Shown here: positions 4,450 to 38,462 of the stretch, piece after piece
Position numbering within the stretch: the stretch's first letter is position 1
Layout: every line of letters starts with the position of its first letter
From: a virus
Reading direction: 5' to 3' (one strand)
Virus record (IMG/VR): IMGVR_UViG_3300002223_000005
Span: 1 to 38,462 of that record
DNA length: 38,462 nucleotides
Notes under the pieces: model-generated
What the model was told of the DNA's origin: nothing
Database searches by the model: none
What the model saw: only the letters and a program-made list of their open reading frames with translations
Translations under genes and position numbers: made by a program

Positions 4450-5216
4450 CTCATGCTCACCGTGTCTTGGAGGGTTTTAATATCGTTTCCTGATTCAATG
4501 GCCCGTTGTATCTGCGCCATGCGTTCGTACACCTGACTTGCTCCGTAATGGGCATTAATCGCCCGTTCTAGTTGCGTCATTTCTTCTTTTGCGGCCTCTA
4601 GCTCTCGGTATCGTTCGGCTAGTTTGGTGATTTTGGTTTTGTGTTCTTCGACCATTTCAGCGTATTGGTTGGCCGGAAATGACATTTTTGGCCGGTCTTT
4701 GCCGTGGTCGCGGCCTTCGACATAGCCTGCTTTACCGAATGGTGACACTTCAGGGATTACAACGTTGATTCCTTTGCCTTTAGCAAAACCCACCCAGGCT
4801 TCCATACAAGGTCGCTGCCAAAAGTATTCGATATCATCTACAGCCATATCGACACCGTAGATTTCAATGTGCTGATAGCCCTTAAGAATGGCATACGCCA
4901 ACATGCAGGCAGGGCTTGACGTTAGATAAAGCGAGCCATAAAGCGCTACAGTCTCGGTATAGGGAAATATTTCGACATTTTCCGAAATTGGGAATTGCTC
5001 ACCCACAACCAGCGGAACATTTAAAGACAGCAACCACTCGACATAGGCATTTACATTGCCATGCTCGCTTAGGTTGTCGTGTATCTCGAAAATACAATCA
5101 AATCTTGGGTATTTGTTGGCTCTGTTGCCTAATACCCAAATCTCATAATTCTTGTCATCAAACGGTGCTAACAACTCGCTTGAAGGCCCGCCGCAAACAA
5201 TTGCTAATTTACCCAC
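4446..5216 (-). CDS. DUF115 / GT42-like (Maf or sialyltransferase-like) putative glycosyltransferase with a C-terminal coiled coil
   Basis: N-terminal KLAIVCGGPSS and later LTSSPACMLAYAILKGYQHIEIYGVDM parallel the IIAGNGPSL and ITSGVYMCAVAIALGYKEIYLSGIDF motifs of Cst-II-type enzymes as I recall them. Confidence 0.4.
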   Translation of the reverse strand: MGKLAIVCGGPSSELLAPFDDKNYEIWVLGNRANKYPRFDCIFEIHDNLSEHGNVNAYVEWLLSLNVPLVVGEQFPISENVEIFPYTETVALYGSLYLTSSPACMLAYAILKGYQHIEIYGVDMAVDDIEYFWQRPCMEAWVGFAKGKGINVVIPEVSPFGKAGYVEGRDHGKDRPKMSFPANQYAEMVEEHKTKITKLAERYRELEAAKEEMTQLERAINAHYGASQVYERMAQIQRAIESGNDIKTLQDTVSMR

Positions 5217-5743: not shown

Positions 5744-6212
5744 CGTAATACAGATCTAGCGTGATCGTACCTGTCGCCGTAGTTGCTGCATCCTTCACCA
5801 CGCCGCGAACAATAAATTCGCCGCCTGGATCAGATGTTTGTGCGTTGACGAAATCCCAAGCAGGCAAACCAACGTTAGCGGCATCTTTCACCACTAAAAC
5901 GTCTGATCCTGCTGAACTCAAAGCCAAGCCGTCATTGATAGCGTCAGGGTCATCTGTAATATTGCTATTAACAGCGATTAGACCGATATCTAAAGTCGGA
6001 GAACCAGAAGTCGCCAGATCGTCATTGTATAAACGAGACGATCCAAGAATTCGTGCGTTGCTCGGAATGCGCCCAAATGTGACGGTAGTGCCACTTGCAG
6101 ACGCGGCTAGTTCAATGGTGGCTGAAAGGTTTTTAACGCTGTAAGCGTCACCAGGGCCACCGACAACCAGATTTGCGGCTGATCGTCGTTGTGTTGCTAA
6201 GTTATCGGCCAT
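5733..6212 (-). CDS. Hypothetical virion protein, possibly head decoration
   Basis: 159-aa ORF directly downstream of the capsid gene. Function is inferred from position only. Confidence 0.4.
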   Translation of the reverse strand: MADNLATQRRSAANLVVGGPGDAYSVKNLSATIELAASASGTTVTFGRIPSNARILGSSRLYNDDLATSGSPTLDIGLIAVNSNITDDPDAINDGLALSSAGSDVLVVKDAANVGLPAWDFVNAQTSDPGGEFIVRGVVKDAATTATGTITLDLYYVVD

Positions 6213-6222
6213 GATTTACCCC

Positions 6223-7299
6223 TTATTGACCAGTTACGAACACGGAAACAACCCCGTGGTCTTTTGTGTTATAAATCAGCTTGTCGATTTCGTGCTTCAT
6301 CTCGACCGCTACCCCTGGCTGGAACTCGTAATCCTTAAGCCGGTCAACCTTAATGCTTGGGCGCTGACCCAAACCAAACCCAACTGCTTGAGCACCACAC
6401 AAAAACGCGGGCTCAACTTTCGTTGTCGCGTTGCCTGCGGTTGCGTAGTAAGTTGAGTTTGCGAGCAGGGTGCTAATCTCTGGAATTTCACGAATAATCA
6501 CGTTATCCCAAATCAGATCACCAGGCTTGAACAGCGGGTTACCTTCGCCGCGAGTGCCTGCATTTGAATGCAGCGTTTCCAGATCTTCTTGCAAATGCAG
6601 AAAACCTTGAGTACCGCAAAACAGAATGTAGGTTTCGACGCCATTAGCCAAACGAATTGGACGGATAATTGGGTCTGCTGTTCTGGCAATCTTTCGCGCC
6701 AGTCGCACAACGTCGCCGGTCAATTTATCGTTGGTCGTGTCGATATTTGCTAATGAAGCAGAGTGGTCGCTTGCTGAATAGTTGCTAGTCGCCGCGCCAT
6801 AAAGCACGCGGTCACTATTTGCCGCCACCCAAATATCAGCGGTGGTATTAATTGCCGCCGTGGTGTTATCAACAGTCACGCGAGTTCCTGTGCCGGTCAT
6901 AGAGCCAAGGCCGTACTTGATAATATCGTCGCGGGTTTTTTCCATTGCCCAATTCATCAGCGCTGCACGTGCGCCTTTCATCAGGTCGATGTTCGGCTTT
7001 TCGCGTTCTTCTGCTGACATTCTGACCGCGTTACGCCAATAAGTAGGCGTGAGTGTGTAGGCATAGTTAGCCAAAATCTCTTCGTTGCCGTCGAGAGTCG
7101 AGCTACCTGAAACGCCATTGCCGGAAAGTTTTGCAATCAACGGAATAGAAACGATCTTCTTCTCTTCTTTGATCACAATGGTGTTGTTAGAGCTTGTGCC
7201 TGTGTATGCGCTAAAGAGGTTATCCCGGACATATTCGCTGAAAAACTCAGATTCAAACCGGGTAACCACATTAGCCGAGGCTGTGGTTGTGTTAGCCAT
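6223..7299 (-). CDS. Major capsid protein (HK97-fold type)
   Basis: 358 aa, lying after the scaffold gene, with RBS aggtaggtaaaaaATG. The call rests on size, position and general resemblance to podovirus capsid proteins. Confidence 0.7.
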   Translation of the reverse strand: MANTTTASANVVTRFESEFFSEYVRDNLFSAYTGTSSNNTIVIKEEKKIVSIPLIAKLSGNGVSGSSTLDGNEEILANYAYTLTPTYWRNAVRMSAEEREKPNIDLMKGARAALMNWAMEKTRDDIIKYGLGSMTGTGTRVTVDNTTAAINTTADIWVAANSDRVLYGAATSNYSASDHSASLANIDTTNDKLTGDVVRLARKIARTADPIIRPIRLANGVETYILFCGTQGFLHLQEDLETLHSNAGTRGEGNPLFKPGDLIWDNVIIREIPEISTLLANSTYYATAGNATTKVEPAFLCGAQAVGFGLGQRPSIKVDRLKDYEFQPGVAVEMKHEIDKLIYNTKDHGVVSVFVTGQ

Positions 7300-24318: not shown

Positions 24319-24342
24319 GATTTAAGTTCTCACCTCCAGGTG

Positions 24343-24368
24343 AAAAAAATGCCAGCGGTTAGGCTGGC
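24343..24368 (-). terminator. Intrinsic terminator between the Cro-like gene and the rest of the early-right operon (tR1-like)
   Basis: Minus strand reads GCCAGC-ctaacc-GCTGGC A TTTTTTT. Confidence 0.7.
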
Positions 24369-24373
24369 TAGGG

Positions 24374-24583
24374 TTAGGCGGCTTTAGTTTCGTTCGGGAA
24401 AAGGATTTCGATTAAGGTCATTTCTCCATTGCTAGCCTCTTCAAGGCGTTTTGCTAAACGACTAGATACCGACCCTTTAGCAATGGCGATTTGTTGGAAG
24501 TTTCCGAAAGTAGTACCGGCAGCGGTACAGACCTCCGTTATCCGTTGCTTACTGTTTATCTTGTAAAATTCGGTAGGAGTCAT
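24374..24583 (-). CDS. Cro/YdaS-like HTH regulator
   Basis: 69 aa and the first gene of the minus-strand operon, divergent from the CI-like gene. HTH-like segment ITEVCTAAGTTFGNFQQIAIAKGSVSSRLAKRL. Confidence 0.55.
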   Translation of the reverse strand: MTPTEFYKINSKQRITEVCTAAGTTFGNFQQIAIAKGSVSSRLAKRLEEASNGEMTLIEILFPNETKAA

Positions 24584-29344: not shown

Positions 29345-29638
29345 ATGGTGCACATTTTTACAGCGAAGATGCAACCGGCGACCGATTTTATAGACGACTG
29401 CGGAGCGATACCGATCCATTTTAGCTTTAAATCTGACGATTTGCTTTATTGCCAATGCTGCAACAAAGAACACACAGCTAAAGATTGCGTTGTGCAGGTT
29501 TATTACGATGACACTAGCATTTGGTGCGCGCCGGGCAAAGGCTGCAAAGACCCGCACGTCATTGATGCGAAGAAGGCCAAAGAGTTTGCAAACAGAAGTG
29601 CTGGGCAAAAAAAACGTTATGCAAAATGTAACGCCTAA
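29345..29638 (+). CDS. Hypothetical Cys-rich protein; its stop lies inside structured repeat A
   Basis: 97 aa. The TAA at 29636-29638 is embedded in GCCTAAC. Confidence 0.5.
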   Translation: MVHIFTAKMQPATDFIDDCGAIPIHFSFKSDDLLYCQCCNKEHTAKDCVVQVYYDDTSIWCAPGKGCKDPHVIDAKKAKEFANRSAGQKKRYAKCNA

Positions 29639-29679
29639 CCCTGCATTCAGCGGGCATCCGCTGGAATGCCTTGTTAGGC
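29633..29679 (+). repeat. attC-like structured repeat, copy A
   Basis: GCCTAAC cct GCATTCAGCGG gcat CCGCT[G]GAATGC ctt GTTAGGC, followed by GGTTTTTT. Confidence 0.8.
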
Positions 29680-29823
29680 GGTTTTTTACGTAGGGGCAAC
29701 CTGGTCTGTTAGAAAGTGCGCATATCGACAGATTGGTTTGTGTTGGAACGATTATGGTTGTAAACGACCGCAATCTAGCAGAGTTCGATTCTCTGCCCCT
29801 GCTCTCTATTAAAAAGGTGATTT

Positions 29824-30021
29824 ATGGCAATTGAATGGCAAAAAGGCGAGCCACCAAAAGATGACAAACGATATTTAACAAAAACAAAAACAGGGATCAT
29901 TTGCTCTTCATCATATAGAGAGGGGCGAACAGGGGAACCCGTAAAGCATTATCTCGGTTGGCGCTGTGACTGTTGCGGTAGATTTGGAACGCCTGAATAT
30001 TGGGCAAATATTGACGCCTAA
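29824..30021 (+). CDS. Hypothetical protein (weak DUF551-like N-terminus); its stop lies inside repeat B
   Basis: 65 aa. The leader AAAAGGTGATTTATGG is identical to that of ORF 30720. Confidence 0.5.
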   Translation: MAIEWQKGEPPKDDKRYLTKTKTGIICSSSYREGRTGEPVKHYLGWRCDCCGRFGTPEYWANIDA

Positions 30022-30063
30022 CCCCAAGCACAACGGCTTGTCCGTTGGTGCGCCTTGTTAGGC
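30016..30063 (+). repeat. attC-like structured repeat, copy B
   Basis: GCCTAAC cccaa GCACAACGG cttgt CCGTT[G]GTGC gcctt GTTAGGC, followed by GGTTTT. Confidence 0.8.
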
Positions 30064-30082
30064 GGTTTTAACAACTAGGAGA

Positions 30083-30307
30083 ATGAAAGAAATGAGCACA
30101 GAACATGAAGAGCCTTGTGGGTGGATTCGCGGAGAGCCGCTAGAAGTTAGGAGGAAAGTTATCTCAGGGGTCAACGCTTTTATGGTAAGGCAGTCAAATA
30201 ATCTTAGGCGTCTTGATGGTGATTTTAATCCTGGCTGCATAGCATATAAGTGGTTTTATACATTTGATGAGCTATTAGACTTTTTGCGATGGTGGATGAG
30301 CGCCTAA
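30083..30307 (+). CDS. Hypothetical protein; its stop lies inside repeat C
   Basis: 74 aa. The ATG at 30092 has better spacing to AGGAGA than the track ATG at 30083. Confidence 0.5.
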   Translation: MKEMSTEHEEPCGWIRGEPLEVRRKVISGVNAFMVRQSNNLRRLDGDFNPGCIAYKWFYTFDELLDFLRWWMSA

Positions 30308-30349
30308 CCCCGCATTCAGCGGTTTATCCGCTGCAATGCTTTGTTAGGC
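30302..30349 (+). repeat. attC-like structured repeat, copy C
   Basis: GCCTAAC ccc GCATTCAGCGG tttat CCGCTG[C]AATGC ttt GTTAGGC. Confidence 0.8.
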
Positions 30350-30373
30350 GATTGATTTAGAAGGATTAAGGCA

Positions 30374-30652
30374 ATGGAAAAATATAGATGCGACGTCAGA
30401 GGAACTGATGTTGAAATATTCAAAACAGAAAAAGGCGAATTCTTGCCGTATGACGTTGTGAATATTGAAATTGAAGAACTTAGATGCGAGGTTGCCCGTT
30501 TGCGCCAAGCGCTTAGCGATATTGCTGATCCATTTGCGGCGTGGCAACGCAACTTAAAACAAGGGGAGCAACTTAATAGCGTAATGTGTGTAGTTTTAGC
30601 AAACGAACCTGAAACGTATAAACGGCGGGCTCGTGAGGCTTTAAGCGCCTAA
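30374..30652 (+). CDS. Hypothetical protein; its stop lies inside repeat D
   Basis: 92 aa with GAAGGA RBS. Confidence 0.5.
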   Translation: MEKYRCDVRGTDVEIFKTEKGEFLPYDVVNIEIEELRCEVARLRQALSDIADPFAAWQRNLKQGEQLNSVMCVVLANEPETYKRRAREALSA

Positions 30653-30694
30653 CCCCGCATTCAGGCGCTCGTCGCCTGGAATGCTTTGTTATAC
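30647..30694 (+). repeat. attC-like structured repeat, copy D (variant right box)
   Basis: GCCTAAC ccc GCATTCAGGCG ctcgt CGCCT[G]GAATGC ttt GTTATAC. Confidence 0.75.
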
Positions 30695-30719
30695 GCGAGA
30701 TCAAGACAAAAGGTGATTT

Positions 30720-30941
30720 ATGGACTTAATATTTTTGGCAAAAAAAACACTAAAAGAACAAGGATTCGGTGGACTATACCACGATGACTGTGGATGCGAA
30801 CTAGACGATTTAATGCCTTGCTGCGCTCCGTGTATTGATTGCACTGCTGGCTATAAAAGTACGCATAGCGTTACTGGAGAATGGGTTATCTCTGGCAAAA
30901 AGGACTTACCAGACGACAGGATAGAGGTGAATCATGGATAA
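30720..30941 (+). CDS. Hypothetical Cys-rich protein
   Basis: 73 aa (DDCGCELDDLMPCCAPCIDC) with leader AAAAGGTGATTTATGG. Confidence 0.5.
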   Translation: MDLIFLAKKTLKEQGFGGLYHDDCGCELDDLMPCCAPCIDCTAGYKSTHSVTGEWVISGKKDLPDDRIEVNHG

Positions 30942-31116
30942 AGTAACAGTAAGCGCCGAGCCACTGCGAGAAATACTTCAGGCGTTGATAGGTTCGCCAC
31001 ACCATATTAGAGAACTTCAAGCAACAATGACATTACCCGGCAACTTAAACCCGATAAACCAATTGTGCGAGGAATTTAATATTCAGGCGGCTAGGCACAA
31101 CAATAAAGACGTATAA
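30934..31116 (+). CDS. Hypothetical protein; its stop lies inside repeat E
   Basis: 60 aa with an 8-nt overlap with the upstream ORF. Confidence 0.45.
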   Translation: MDKVTVSAEPLREILQALIGSPHHIRELQATMTLPGNLNPINQLCEEFNIQAARHNNKDV

Positions 31117-31150
31117 CCCCAGCATTCAGCGGGATAATGCCTTATCAGGC
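31111..31150 (+). repeat. attC-like structured repeat, copy E (shortened, variant boxes)
   Basis: GTATAAC ccca GCATT cagcgggat AATGC ctt ATCAGGC, followed by GATTTT. Confidence 0.6.
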
Positions 31151-31174
31151 GATTTTAACACCGGAGATGAAGAG

Positions 31175-31390
31175 ATGAAGGTTTTCAGAGTAGTGACTGA
31201 ACGGGACGGGGAAACGACAAAAGAACCCGGCACAATATCTACAGAGATTGTTAAGTCTGAATACTTGTACGCGGCAGAAACGATTGAGCGGGTTTGGAAA
31301 GAAACTGAATTTCTGCGTGATAGTATAGGACATGAAATTATTGCGATAAGCGAAGTAGCACCGGCTATTACTGTGCTAATGAGCGCTTAA
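31175..31390 (+). CDS. Hypothetical protein; its stop lies inside repeat F
   Basis: 71 aa with GGAG 8 nt upstream. Confidence 0.5.
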   Translation: MKVFRVVTERDGETTKEPGTISTEIVKSEYLYAAETIERVWKETEFLRDSIGHEIIAISEVAPAITVLMSA

Positions 31391-31438
31391 CCCCCAAGCT
31401 AACGGGCGCGTAGCGTCCCATCGAGCACCTTGTTAGAC
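31385..31438 (+). repeat. attC-like structured repeat, copy F (diverged in sequence, similar in structure)
   Basis: GCTTAAC cccca AGCT aac GGGCGC gta GCG[T]CCC atcg AGC acctt GTTAGAC. Confidence 0.5.
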
Positions 31439-31554
31439 GACAGTCGTTTTTCCAGGTATTAGGCGACAGTCGTCTAATCAGGTAAAGAACGACATTTGAA
31501 ATAGCGTTTTGGTTATTGCAGAAAGTGGACAGAAGTTGGAATAAGGTGATTTGA

Positions 31555-31759: not shown

Positions 31760-32089
31760 ATGAGCGAACTGTTTAAAGTGAGCGACTTGCACAAAGAAGT
31801 GCTGAATGCTTTTGAAGCGGCCGCTTATTTGCAGTTGGCTCCAAAAACAGTCAGAGCGATGACCTTAGAAGGCCGATTGCCCGGTAAGAAAGTCGGGCGC
31901 GAGTGGAGGTATCTAAAAAGTGTGCTTGAGAAGTGGTTATCTGGCGATTATTCTGAGCCTGAGCAAAATCCAGTGGGTGTTCTCAACAGAAAGGAGAACA
32001 AATCATGTCGCTCTTTAAACGTGGTGACACATACTGGGTCAATATTAGGCACAAGGGACGCCGACTACGAAAAAGCACTGGGACTGTAG
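31760..32089 (+). CDS. xis: Excisionase-family HTH protein (MerR-like HTH_17 type)
   Basis: LNAFEAAAYLQLAPKTVRAMTLEGRLPGKKVGREWRYLKSVLEKWL fits the excisionase-family DNA-binding pattern. It lies directly upstream of int and overlaps it by 85 nt. Confidence 0.6.
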   Translation: MSELFKVSDLHKEVLNAFEAAAYLQLAPKTVRAMTLEGRLPGKKVGREWRYLKSVLEKWLSGDYSEPEQNPVGVLNRKENKSCRSLNVVTHTGSILGTRDADYEKALGL

Positions 32090-33078
32090 AGCTTGAAAAG
32101 GCTCAAGAGTTCCATGACCAAGCGAAGTCGGATTTATGGAGAGTTGAAAAGTTAGGAGGCCGCCCAAGACGGACTTGGAAAGAGGCTGTCTTGCGCTGGT
32201 TGAAGGAGAACAGCCACAAAAAAAGCCTGGGATCGGACAAGCGGCGCTTGAAGCTGCTTCATGCCTGGATCGGCAATCTTTACATGGACCAGATCGACAG
32301 AGAAACCGTTGATCGCATTAAATATGATCGAGCTGGGCAGAACAAACTGAATTGCCAAGGCCAGGACACAGGCAAATGTGTGACCAATGCTGAAGTAAAC
32401 AGAATGCTGGCCTTGCTCCGAACCATATTAAAAGCCTGCTGTGATGATTGGGAGTGGATTGATAGCATACCCAAAGTGAAGTTGTTCAAGGAAGATAAAA
32501 TCAGGATTCGATGGCTGACACATGAAGATGCCAAGATTTTGTTAAATCATTTGCCTGATCATCTAAGGGCTATAGCCAGCTTTTCACTGTCCACCGGATT
32601 GCGTGAGCAAAATGTTGTGGGCCTGGAATGGTCACAAATTGATTTATCTCGTCGAGTAGCGTGGGTGCATGGTGACGAAGTAAAAAATAGCAAAGCGTTG
32701 GCGGTGCCATTAAATGAGGAAGCATTGGAAGTATTGAGAGAACAGCGATTCAAACACGATCGCTATGTTTTCACGTTCAAAGGTGACCGAATTTTAAGGG
32801 CAAATAACACAGGATGGCGCAAAGCGTTAAAGGATGCCGGAATCACCAATTTCCGTTGGCACGATTTAAGGCACACCTGGGCCAGTTGGCATATTCAAAA
32901 CGGAACAGCATTAAACACGCTGCAAGAGTTGGGTGGTTGGGAGTCTATCGAAATGGTGCGCCGTTATGCCCATTTAGCGCCCGAAAACTTAGCAAAAGCA
33001 GCAGCCGACAATTTAGCGCGTGGTCACGTTTTGGTCACAGACGAATTAGAGGCAATAAAAAAGGCGACCCACTCGTAA
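32005..33078 (+). CDS. int: Tyrosine recombinase, phage integrase
   Basis: Catalytic residues in order: GLR (R), KNSKALAVPL (K), HDLRHTWAS (HxxR), LGGWESIEMVRRYAHL (W/H..Y). It has a typical N-terminal MSLFKRGDTYW..G.R.R.STGT arm-binding domain and is adjacent to attP. Confidence 0.9.
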   Translation: MSLFKRGDTYWVNIRHKGRRLRKSTGTVELEKAQEFHDQAKSDLWRVEKLGGRPRRTWKEAVLRWLKENSHKKSLGSDKRRLKLLHAWIGNLYMDQIDRETVDRIKYDRAGQNKLNCQGQDTGKCVTNAEVNRMLALLRTILKACCDDWEWIDSIPKVKLFKEDKIRIRWLTHEDAKILLNHLPDHLRAIASFSLSTGLREQNVVGLEWSQIDLSRRVAWVHGDEVKNSKALAVPLNEEALEVLREQRFKHDRYVFTFKGDRILRANNTGWRKALKDAGITNFRWHDLRHTWASWHIQNGTALNTLQELGGWESIEMVRRYAHLAPENLAKAAADNLARGHVLVTDELEAIKKATHS

Positions 33079-33107: not shown

Positions 33108-33155
33108 TGGTGCCCGGTCTCGGAATCGAACCAAGGACACGGGGATTTTCAATCC
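33108..33155 (-). other. attP core: the 3' 48 nt of a tRNA-Phe(GAA) gene (anticodon stem 3' half to CCA), not a complete tRNA
   Basis: The minus strand reads GGATTGAAAATCCCCGTGTCCTTGGTTCGATTCCGAGACCGGGCACCA. This matches the E. coli tRNA-Phe 3' portion as I recall it, with one difference. Sequence 5' of it (tagta...) does not continue the tRNA. Confidence 0.8.
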
Positions 33156-33407
33156 TACTATTTAATATAAAACATTAATAATATCAACACCTTACTGATT
33201 TTGCTCAAATCTTGTGACCGTTGATAGACCGCTAAAACCGTTGAGGTATTGTCGAAGGTGGACACAAAATGGACACATCGGCATTGTACCAAAAGTGAGC
33301 AGTTATTACCATGAGCAACAACTTAACCACAAGGGATTTTAAGTCCGTCGCCGCGCTCAGCAGGGCTTGATTTTCCTGGCTTTGCGACTGGAAAAGCAGG
33401 GCACAAA

Positions 33408-37826: not shown

Positions 37827-38462
37827 TTAGAAACTCAGTAAGTCATCATCGCTTAGATTTGAAACGTCATTTTGTTGGCTACCAACAGCCTTACCCTTTG
37901 ATAACTGTTCCGCTTTTCTTCTAAAGATTTTTGATTTTGAATCCTGCCACTGAATGAAATTACCGATCATTTCAATTTTTTTCTTTGGTGTAATGTTCGG
38001 GTTTTTTACACTCTCTGAAAGTGTTTGCGCCCGCGCCAACATTTCCTTTTCAGACTGAGGGCCGGGAGGGTAGGGTATATCAGTTAGGACAATCGCCGCG
38101 AATTGCTCAAGCTCTGCCTGCGCATCTGCTGGGTTAGTGTTTCCGACAACTTTAGATAGCCCCATTGTCACAGCCTTGGATAACGATGTATTCGGAGCCG
38201 ATGCCATTACCTGTTCGATCTCCGAAACACCTTGATCATTTACCAAGCCAACGGAGGCAATATATTCTCGGTTAGCATCCCATTGGTCGGCTCTGTCTGC
38301 GAATGCTGCCGCGTTTTTGGCTTCTGCGCCTGCCAATTCAACATCCCGCTTTATTTCAGGCTTGTAGGTGGCATCTGACACGTTTTTAGCGGTTTGGCTT
38401 GCGCCTGATTTTTCGCCAGCCATAACAATAGGGCTTAATGGTTGACCGCCGCCGATCGGTAC
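37827..38462 (-). CDS. C-terminal part of the 411-codon gene that wraps the junction (see 1-647)
   Basis: The track ORF 37827-38423 starts at an internal Met. The frame stays open to 38462 and is continuous with 647-1 via the 47-nt overlap. Confidence 0.7.
   Translation of the reverse strand, partial: VPIGGGQPLSPIVMAGEKSGASQTAKNVSDATYKPEIKRDVELAGAEAKNAAAFADRADQWDANREYIASVGLVNDQGVSEIEQVMASAPNTSLSKAVTMGLSKVVGNTNPADAQAELEQFAAIVLTDIPYPPGPQSEKEMLARAQTLSESVKNPNITPKKKIEMIGNFIQWQDSKSKIFRRKAEQLSKGKAVGSQQNDVSNLSDDDLLSF
38416..38462. repeat. Terminal direct repeat, copy 2 (circular-closure overlap)
   Basis: Exact 47-nt copy of nt 1-47. Confidence 0.95.

Follow-up and report, generated by a model that had tools for sequence, protein, structure and literature searches.

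Boxes paired across neighbouring genes point to an attC-type cassette array in the early operon of a P22-like phage

Introduction

Phage genomes are mosaics, and the mechanisms that move single small genes between phages are mostly not known. The virus recorded in IMG/VR as IMGVR_UViG_3300002223_000005 (38,462 bp; this whole stretch, positions 1–38,462, is called the window below) raises this question at one particular locus. In its early region, a small open reading frame (ORF) is followed by a repeat of ~48 nt, and this layout recurs until six copies (A–D intact, E decayed and F diverged) occupy positions 29633–31438 of the + strand. Why does the right box of copy D pair with the left box of copy E, which lies beyond two ORFs, and not with D's own left box? 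A preliminary description of the locus took the boxes for cassette boundaries of integron-type site-specific recombination, not for arms compensated within one hairpin, and considered the segment between D and E a unit that was once circular. Our analysis of the window and of homologous arrays makes it likely that the six repeats are attC-type recombination sites with full attC anatomy. They would belong to a gene-cassette array without an integron integrase, in which circular cassettes are exchanged through folded hairpins, one strand being transferred by an enzyme supplied in trans.

Box complementarity across the D–E segment

Element D (30647–30694) carries the left box GCCTAAC and the right box GTTATAC (30688–30694), and in its fold the inner stem is kept and the outer stem contains two mismatches. 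The left box of element E, GTATAAC (31111–31117), lies 417 nt downstream of D and is the exact reverse complement of D's right box; the complementarity reaches the eighth base (GTTATACG / CGTATAAC) and is exact over 8 bp. Two ORFs (30720–30941 and 30934–31116) are located between D and E, and the right box of E, ATCAGGC (31144–31150), is unable to pair with E's own left box. The coordinates and sequences of the preliminary description all proved accurate. It also pointed out that the right box of E and the left box of F (GCTTAAC, 31385–31391) do not follow the rule, and this failure is accounted for by the decay of E: ~10 nt of its 3′ inner arm are deleted, and the remnant neither folds nor is detected by the covariance model (CM) of the family. 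The statement that D/E is the only informative pair needs correction, because the right box of F, GTTAGAC (31432–31438), and GTCTAA at 31477–31482 form a second one in the window. By itself, the D/E pair is weak evidence, since the variable triplet GTA occurs in ~12% of left boxes across the family.

Cross-element pairing in homologous arrays

Arrays of the same element were recovered by pattern scans of IMG/VR, JGI metagenomes and GTDB genomes, and then with a CM built from 19 short copies, in ~35 viral and metagenomic contigs with up to 10 sites per array. The preliminary description had suggested tabulating adjacent pairs in such arrays. Here, pairs no more than 450 nt apart were counted in a first, deduplicated set and in a second, independent set. 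The right box of element n is perfectly complementary to the left box of element n+1 in 44 of 50 pairs of the first set, and element n is perfect with its own boxes in 13 of 50; by comparison, random box pairing yields a mean of 6.0 and a maximum of 15 (10,000 draws). Where element n is internally mismatched, pairing across the gene is perfect in 32 of 37 cases. The second set gives 13/16 perfect pairs across the gene and 2/16 within the element. One array, L193, contains eight different box types, and its seven pairs all match perfectly across the gene. The eighth base pair is complementary in 86% of pairs, and the complementarity sometimes extends over 10–13 bp. A model of compensation inside each hairpin cannot yield this pattern, and chance is excluded.

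These statistics bear directly on a simpler explanation, in which the repeats are ordinary terminators or mRNA hairpins and the D/E match is a coincidence. A T run follows element A, the only one that has such a run, and a terminator scan picks up three of the hairpins. However, terminator-like sites are not enriched (7 versus 4.7 ± 2.2 in shuffled sequences), no Rfam family matches the elements, and cross-element complementarity in 44 of 50 pairs, where 6 are expected, refutes this explanation family-wide and leaves it practically untenable.

Anatomy of the elements

In DNA folding, each intact copy forms an outer stem of 8 bp, an internal loop of 3 × 3 to 5 × 5, an inner stem of ~11 bp interrupted by a single bulge, and a loop of 4–5 nt (z scores from −3.4 to −6.6). 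Their boxes follow the pattern RYYYAAC/GTTRRRY, in the form GCCTAAC/GTTAGGC in A–C, and TAAC and GTTA are invariant in 19 aligned family members; box position 3 is often A instead of Y (ACA, GCA, GTA). The internal loop provides an unpaired central spacer in every intact copy. The inner stem covaries, with compensatory changes in 8 of 9 pairs and 94% of cells paired, compared with 33–45% in slid controls, and the variable positions of the outer stem are often unpaired within an element. Chimeric sites, as at the boundaries of integron cassettes, are found in both sets of adjacent pairs and, in the window, at D/E and F/31477–31482. Family elements are 45–123 nt long, with the same ends and a variable terminal loop.

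Most short family members, like A–D, have a single bulge in the 3′ arm at a distance of 8 nt from the right box. It occupies position 16 on the arm opposite AAC, the G16 position, and where the 3′ arm of a short element is longer by one base, the bulged base is G in 11 cases, C in 5, A in 4 and T in 4. The extrahelical base G16, named by Nivina 2016, defines the recombined bottom strand of attC, and the bottom strand of the aadA7 attC, as listed in Table S3 of Qi 2023 (PMC9892861), shows the same bulge geometry. Classical attC sites possess two or three extrahelical bases, whereas the elements of the window's family possess one. By comparison, classical arrays (class 1 and Vibrio chromosomal integrons) and this family share the R''/R' boxes, the unpaired spacer, an L stem with the position-16 base, a variable terminal structure, chimeric sites at cassette boundaries and one polar array end. 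Furthermore, the CM of the window's family matches PH101_attC2 of Pseudoalteromonas phage H101 (E = 1.5e-5), a site that is recombined by IntI1 into attI1 as reported by Qi et al. 2023 (PMC9892861).

Strand polarity and cassette junctions

Because the bulge of the + (coding) strand lies on its 3′ arm, 8 nt from the right box, the + strand corresponds to the attC bottom strand. A Vibrio chromosomal-integron control (intIA and cassettes, phage Va_90-11-286_p16) matches the model on the strand opposite its ORFs and, by direct reading, has its additional base on the 5′ arm of the coding strand. In 78 of 102 family elements, the box TAA terminates an open frame of 40 codons or more (6 and 2 for the other two frames), and in 68 of the 69 spacers the longest ORF lies on the bottom-type strand of the hairpin. 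Because IntI cleaves the AAC of the bottom strand between A and C (Nivina 2016), the crossover is predicted at NNNTAA|C, just past the stop codon. For the D–E cassette, the crossover would most likely be GTATAA|C and the unit 30653–31116, comprising the D hairpin body and both ORFs. The two-ORF cassette of the preliminary description is thereby retained, and its limits (30689–31150) and its G|TT crossover in the right box are given up, since the polarity moves the unit. The cross-element rule is valid under either polarity.

Comparisons between arrays agree with a TAA|C crossover. The arrays of L356 and L363 are embedded in flanks that are 94% identical, their cassette sets differ, and both junctions are located at left boxes. 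The left-hand homology stops at ACATAAC|C, and the two arrays begin with different hairpin bodies; at the right-hand junction, ATA stands against ACA in the variable triplet, each matching the last cassette of its own array, and the homology resumes at TAAC ACTTTATTAGAC. Hairpin bodies are shared together with the downstream ORF in L138/L158 and L111/L158, and none of four comparisons shows an upstream ORF sharing the body of the hairpin downstream of it. The canonical polarity, with a G|TT crossover and the hairpin travelling with the upstream ORF, was also considered and was rejected, as downstream bodies are never shared in these four comparisons and the bulge would be on the wrong arm.

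Such comparisons might also be read in terms of homology. The hairpins could be intergenic linkers (RNA hairpins or weak terminators) at which homologous recombination, or recombination by a single-strand annealing protein, swaps genes between phages whose arrays were each uniform in their boxes but unlike one another. This fits with the exonuclease, Gam-like protein and NinB encoded by the phage, with identical hairpin bodies that bear different boxes in different phages (such as the C type in the window, L330 and L002), and with some ORFs that are shared without either flanking hairpin body. At the exchange points, however, the sequence common to all elements amounts to just 6–8 nt (TAACCC, TTGTTA), and to build L193, whose eight box types are all compensated across a gene, separate uniform donors would have had to contribute through many precise double crossovers. 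In addition, the attC geometry (position-16 bulge and unpaired spacer) is conserved though homologous recombination needs none of it, and the polar terminal module of the arrays, described below, would stay unexplained. We regard such a linker function as improbable, and cassette exchange at attC-type sites as the better description of these junctions.

A conserved module at the array terminus

The terminal module of the window (31432–31483, + strand) consists of TTAGAC, an 8-nt arm, a 17-nt loop, a second 8-nt arm and GTCTAA, and contains the direct repeat TTAGACGACAGTCG / TTAGGCGACAGTCG; here, hairpin F replaces a short spacer found elsewhere. In eight arrays, the last cassette is followed by NNNTAAC, 5–6 nt (ACTTTA) and TTAGAC, and six of the eight (L343, L356, L363, L362, L181 and L370) continue as 8-nt arm, 17-nt loop, 8-nt arm and RTMTAA, the module of L362 being incomplete at the contig end; L118 and L099 show the first part only. 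The module was never found upstream of or inside an array. Its stem covaries, with compensatory changes in 6 of 14 pairs and 86% of cells paired, compared with 25–39% in slid controls (six sequences). In layout and spacing, NNNTAA|C ACTTTA TTAGAC resembles the attI1 bottom strand, GCCTAA|C TTTGTT TTAGGGC (a sequence verified in at least 5,000 plasmids), and the order int–terminal module–cassettes in the window is like intI–attI–cassettes in the canonical integron orientation. The terminal module is a candidate attI-like primary insertion site.

Proposed exchange and the recombinase

In the exchange that we propose, a cassette would begin with the C of a ...TAA|C box and finish with the TAA of the following box, and would contain a hairpin body, the right box GTTANNN, a ribosome-binding region, small ORFs (one or two) and NNNTAA. 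In such a cassette as a free circle, the ends would meet to form a single perfect hairpin; for the D–E circle, the predicted junction is ...AAGACGTATAA|CCCCGCATTCAGGCG, with 31116 joined to 30653. Insertion into an existing site would make every hairpin of an array a chimera of two cassettes, which would be why the right box of D pairs with the left box of E and not with D's own. The single-stranded + strand, that is, the attC bottom strand, would fold and be cut between A and C of AAC, one strand would be exchanged, and replication would resolve the junction, as in integrons. For the enzyme, we assume a tyrosine recombinase provided in trans, most probably the integron integrase of a host; the substrate geometry points to IntI.

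A tblastn search with IntIA gave no match in the window or in any array locus. The tyrosine integrase encoded in the window (32005–33078, + strand; PF00589, 9e-33) is a phage enzyme and not an integron integrase, scoring 32.8 bits on TIGR02249 against a cutoff of 265, compared with 494 for the IntIA control. No other recombinase was found among 40 window ORFs scanned with Pfam and/or PHROGs, a sample that includes all those of at least 150 aa on the chosen ORF list and in which many match no family. Across 25 array loci, no linked recombinase family was found, and no protein family occurs in more than three of them. The elements are also not tied to the integrase family of the window, because 80 viral loci with relatives of this integrase (≤48% identity) contain no such elements. 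By its sequence, the array is classed as a phage-borne CALIN (cluster of attC sites that has no integron integrase), because attC-type sites, at least two close together, are present and IntI is absent from the 38.4-kb circular genome. An intI gene and ORFs on the attC top-strand sense, two of the marks of a complete integron, are both lacking.

The same substrate and logic could instead serve a different enzyme, either host XerC/XerD, as for IMEX (integrative mobile elements exploiting Xer) of the CTX type, or a phage tyrosine recombinase such as the neighbouring Int, with the terminal module as its double-stranded site. The lack of IntI in the window and in all array loci would fit this, as would the finding that representative bacterial genomes hardly ever contain these hairpin types, the recurrence of the polar terminal module (invariant TTAGAC, covarying hairpin) in unrelated phages, and the placement of the window int relative to the array polarity, which is that of intI. 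The box with its flank, GCGCATAA|C, presumably resembles the XerC arm of dif with an equivalent cut position. On the other hand, the bulged base is located exactly at the G16 position read by IntI, one family member, PH101_attC2, is a proven IntI1 substrate, and no integrase lies nearby in the fetched stretches of most array loci. As for the phage Int, it is a heterobivalent P22-type enzyme with an attP of its own at tRNA-Phe, ~1.6 kb from the array. A non-IntI enzyme thus appears rather unlikely to us, and a host IntI acting in trans is the enzyme that we favour.

Distribution of the elements and points against cassette exchange

Several observations weigh against exchange of these cassettes by a host IntI. 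Recombination of the elements is deduced from sequences, and protein and assembly searches did not reveal independent mobility of the D–E segment: ORF 30720–30941 has no homologue in 5.8 billion proteins, homologues of ORF 30934–31116 occur only in ordinary phage operons without hairpins, and there are no variants lacking the segment, all other assemblies being 99.8–100% identical here. The core of the earlier proposal, that the boxes are cassette boundaries made by integron-type recombination, is supported, and the segment was not seen as an independent unit in relatives. The window ORF scans and the array loci yielded no recombinase for the array, and the conserved terminal module suggests a dedicated partner protein, which would be a poor fit to many different host IntI enzymes. 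Some ORFs do not travel as expected. L147/L181 and L111/L193 share an ORF but not the upstream hairpin body, and therefore some exchanges must also take place at or close to the right box, or hairpin bodies must be replaced; one ORF (80% identity) is found without hairpins in L099 (1582–1788) and with them in L183 (766–968).

No host integron with matching attC sites is known, and two exact-pattern scans of 185,579 species-representative genomes place these hairpin types only on a single phage-like contig. The scan for CGCCTAACCC...TTGTTAGGCG returned 0 matches, and the scan for a B-type 18-mer returned 7, one of which is real. This match (L330, 2539–3164) lies on the 4.3-kb contig CBDUPD010000276.1 of a Spongiibacteraceae metagenome-assembled genome and comprises three elements, whose hairpin bodies are nearly identical to those of A and C in the window and whose boxes are different (ATA/ACA). 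BLAST of the region, of element B and of the L158 array against 50,697 GenBank phages produced only integrase, SSB or single-ORF matches, and no isolate with a known host among them; a protein-pattern search with the upstream 90-aa gene found no match.

Place of the array in the phage genome

The window is a complete circular genome: an independent contig or assembly reads through from its end to its start, and nt 1–47 are identical to nt 38416–38462 as a terminal repeat. It encodes a P22-type portal, a gp7-like ejection protein, a capsid protein and a terminase, and the phage is a P22-like temperate phage. On the + strand, the early operon contains, in this order, a regulator, an exonuclease, a Mu Gam-like protein, small ORFs, an excisionase and a tyrosine integrase; NinB is also encoded. 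The array lies within this early-left operon, between the recombination genes and xis–int. The upstream gene (29345–29638, + strand, 97 aa) forms the first left box with its last codon and stop (GCC TAA); no box or hairpin is located upstream of it, and it acts as the platform side of the first junction. Downstream of the array, an excisionase-like HTH_17 protein (31760–32089, + strand; Pfam PF12728, 2.5e-11; PHROG excisionase families) is followed by int, which adjoins the 3′ half of a tRNA-Phe (33108–33157, − strand; 96–98% identical to E. coli tRNA-Phe). This half tRNA is the core of the phage attachment site attP, and ARAGORN detected no complete tRNA in the window.

This position also bears on the idea that the array is a piece of a host chromosomal integron taken up by imprecise prophage excision, as in Vibrio anguillarum phage Va_90-11-286_p16. 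Captures of this kind are documented among the phages of Qi 2023 (L320). The array, however, lies inside the early operon between conserved phage genes and not at an att end beside host genes, and its ORF polarity is opposite to that of integron cassettes. The same architecture is present in ~35 unrelated viral contigs, cassette ORFs have homologues in ordinary phage operons, and no matching attC type was found in the bacterial genomes scanned. Host capture is hence most improbable for this array.

Relation to known systems

Phage CALINs were reported in 17 genomes, with 2–4 predicted sites per phage, by Qi, Rajabal, Ghaly, Tetu & Gillings 2023 (PMC9892861). These arrays, H101/PH101 among them, are like that of the window in having attC-type hairpins between small ORFs and no intI, and in H101 the genes lie on the attC bottom-strand sense, as in the window. 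Adjacent sites of H101 also follow the cross-element rule (GTTATAT of attC1 versus ATATAAC of attC2). Unlike in the window, the stop codons of H101 are outside the boxes, and some cassettes have ORFs on the other strand. As compared with the CALINs of that study, the window's family has longer arrays (up to 10 sites), is very regular and occurs in many viral and metagenomic contigs. The results and supplement of Qi 2023 contain no description of cross-element complementarity, inverse polarity, a stop codon in the box or a conserved terminus, and our literature search found none of inverse polarity, a stop codon in the box or an attI-like terminus. The kind is already known as the phage CALIN, and the variant seen here, with inverse polarity, a stop codon in the box and an attI-like terminus, appears not to have been described.

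The window array differs from classical integrons in several respects. It has no intI and no Pc, and its expression depends on read-through of the phage early operon. Its ORFs lie on the bottom-strand sense, and in a cassette the hairpin therefore precedes the ORF, whose stop codon is the exact cassette end. IMEX, such as CTX phage with its attP(+), use a folded single-strand hairpin that mimics a core site, at which one strand is transferred by a tyrosine recombinase of the host, with replication then resolving the product; these elements encode no recombinase. In contrast to the window, whole phage genomes integrate at dif without forming cassette arrays, and the G16-type bulge is an IntI feature; a 28-bp dif-like site, in which Xer-binding arms of 11 bp flank a centre of 6–8 bp, appears to be absent here. 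Lambdoid morons and mosaic boundaries share with it small early accessory genes, short conserved bounding sequences and a variable gene content. Morons, however, are defined by a promoter and terminator of their own and have neither paired-box chimerism nor attC geometry.

The array suggests that a whole phage group uses integron chemistry to stock and exchange early accessory genes. In other phages such genes include host-takeover and anti-defence functions; the cassette ORFs here are known by sequence only. The inverse polarity implies a cassette pool separate from bacterial integrons, though it should be mechanically compatible with them, and the missing integrase and the attI-like terminus raise the question of which enzyme acts. 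A tentative and bolder view, which we hold to be possible but doubtful, is that of a distinct phage-specific integron-like platform with an attI-like site of its own. Its inverse cassettes would be functionally insulated from bacterial integrons, its recombinase would not be a linked IntI and could be host XerCD, an integrase from a phage or an enzyme not yet recognised, and through the platform marine and other gammaproteobacterial phages would trade early accessory genes. The CM and the box rule together offer a direct way to mine such cassettes from viromes.

Individual elements, predicted cassettes and additional observations

The CM (R1) detects five sites in the window, which together with the remnant E lie within 1.8 kb; all elements and predicted cassettes are on the + strand. 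Element A (29633–29679; GCCTAAC...GTTAGGC; 60.9 bits, E = 3.5e-14; −19.5 kcal/mol, z = −6.6) would contribute its body to cassette 1 (29639–30021), which contains ORF 29824–30021 (65 aa), ends with GCC TAA and takes its limits from the predicted TAA|C crossover. Element B (30016–30063; GCCTAAC...GTTAGGC; 69.6 bits) has a bulged G 8 nt from the right box, and its body with ORF 30083–30307 (74 aa) would form cassette 2 (30022–30307). Likewise, the body of element C (30302–30349; GCCTAAC...GTTAGGC; 68.6 bits, z = −6.2) and ORF 30374–30652 (92 aa) would constitute cassette 3 (30308–30652). The chimeric hairpin D (GCCTAAC...GTTATAC; 61.4 bits) is followed by the predicted cassette 4 (30653–31116), with limits derived from the polarity, which consists of the D body, GTTATAC and ORFs 30720–30941 (73 aa) and 30934–31116 (60 aa) and ends with GTA TAA. 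The decayed site E (31111–31150) and ORF 31175–31390 (71 aa), ending with GCT TAA, would represent cassette 5 (31117–31390), whose end boxes no longer pair. Element F (31385–31438; GCTTAAC...GTTAGAC) is a diverged hairpin with a weak fold (27.4 bits, E = 3.4e-4).

The final codon of every cassette ORF is set by the box: it is Ala (GCC or GCT before TAA) in five ORFs and Val (GTA) in the D–E cassette, a triplet that recurs, reverse-complemented, in the 5′ untranslated region of that cassette.

Independent metagenome assemblies of the phage (contigs L322, L323, L324 and L334) break inside hairpin D, where three contigs end at 30663 or 30678, and in one sample two contig ends overlap by just 14 nt. 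These ends probably reflect an assembly or sequencing problem and not strain variation.

The ORF common to L099 and L183 is flanked by attC-like hairpins in one contig and abuts its neighbours in the other, with the stop contexts CATAA|CCC versus CATAG|GGG, and the pair may be a view of cassette birth or decay.

In phage H101 (L321), a stretch of ~90 nt is duplicated upstream of two attC sites (4520–4600 and 5930–6000), beside minus-strand ORFs that lack annotation. The classical ORF/attC polarity thus appears to apply to some H101 cassettes, and the inverse to the annotated genes.

On the minus strand of the window, at 24340–24385, a cro-like gene ends with ...GCC GCC TAA CCC, a stop context like that of the cassettes; 3′ of it lies an ordinary terminator hairpin (GCCAGCCTAACCGCTGGC and a T run) and no attC-like element. 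Finally, the motif GCGAAACGGGAGCCGCCCCGTA is common to the array contigs L003 (~6790–6830) and L343 (~5900–5950), on the minus strands and far from the arrays, and may be part of an attachment site or a small RNA.

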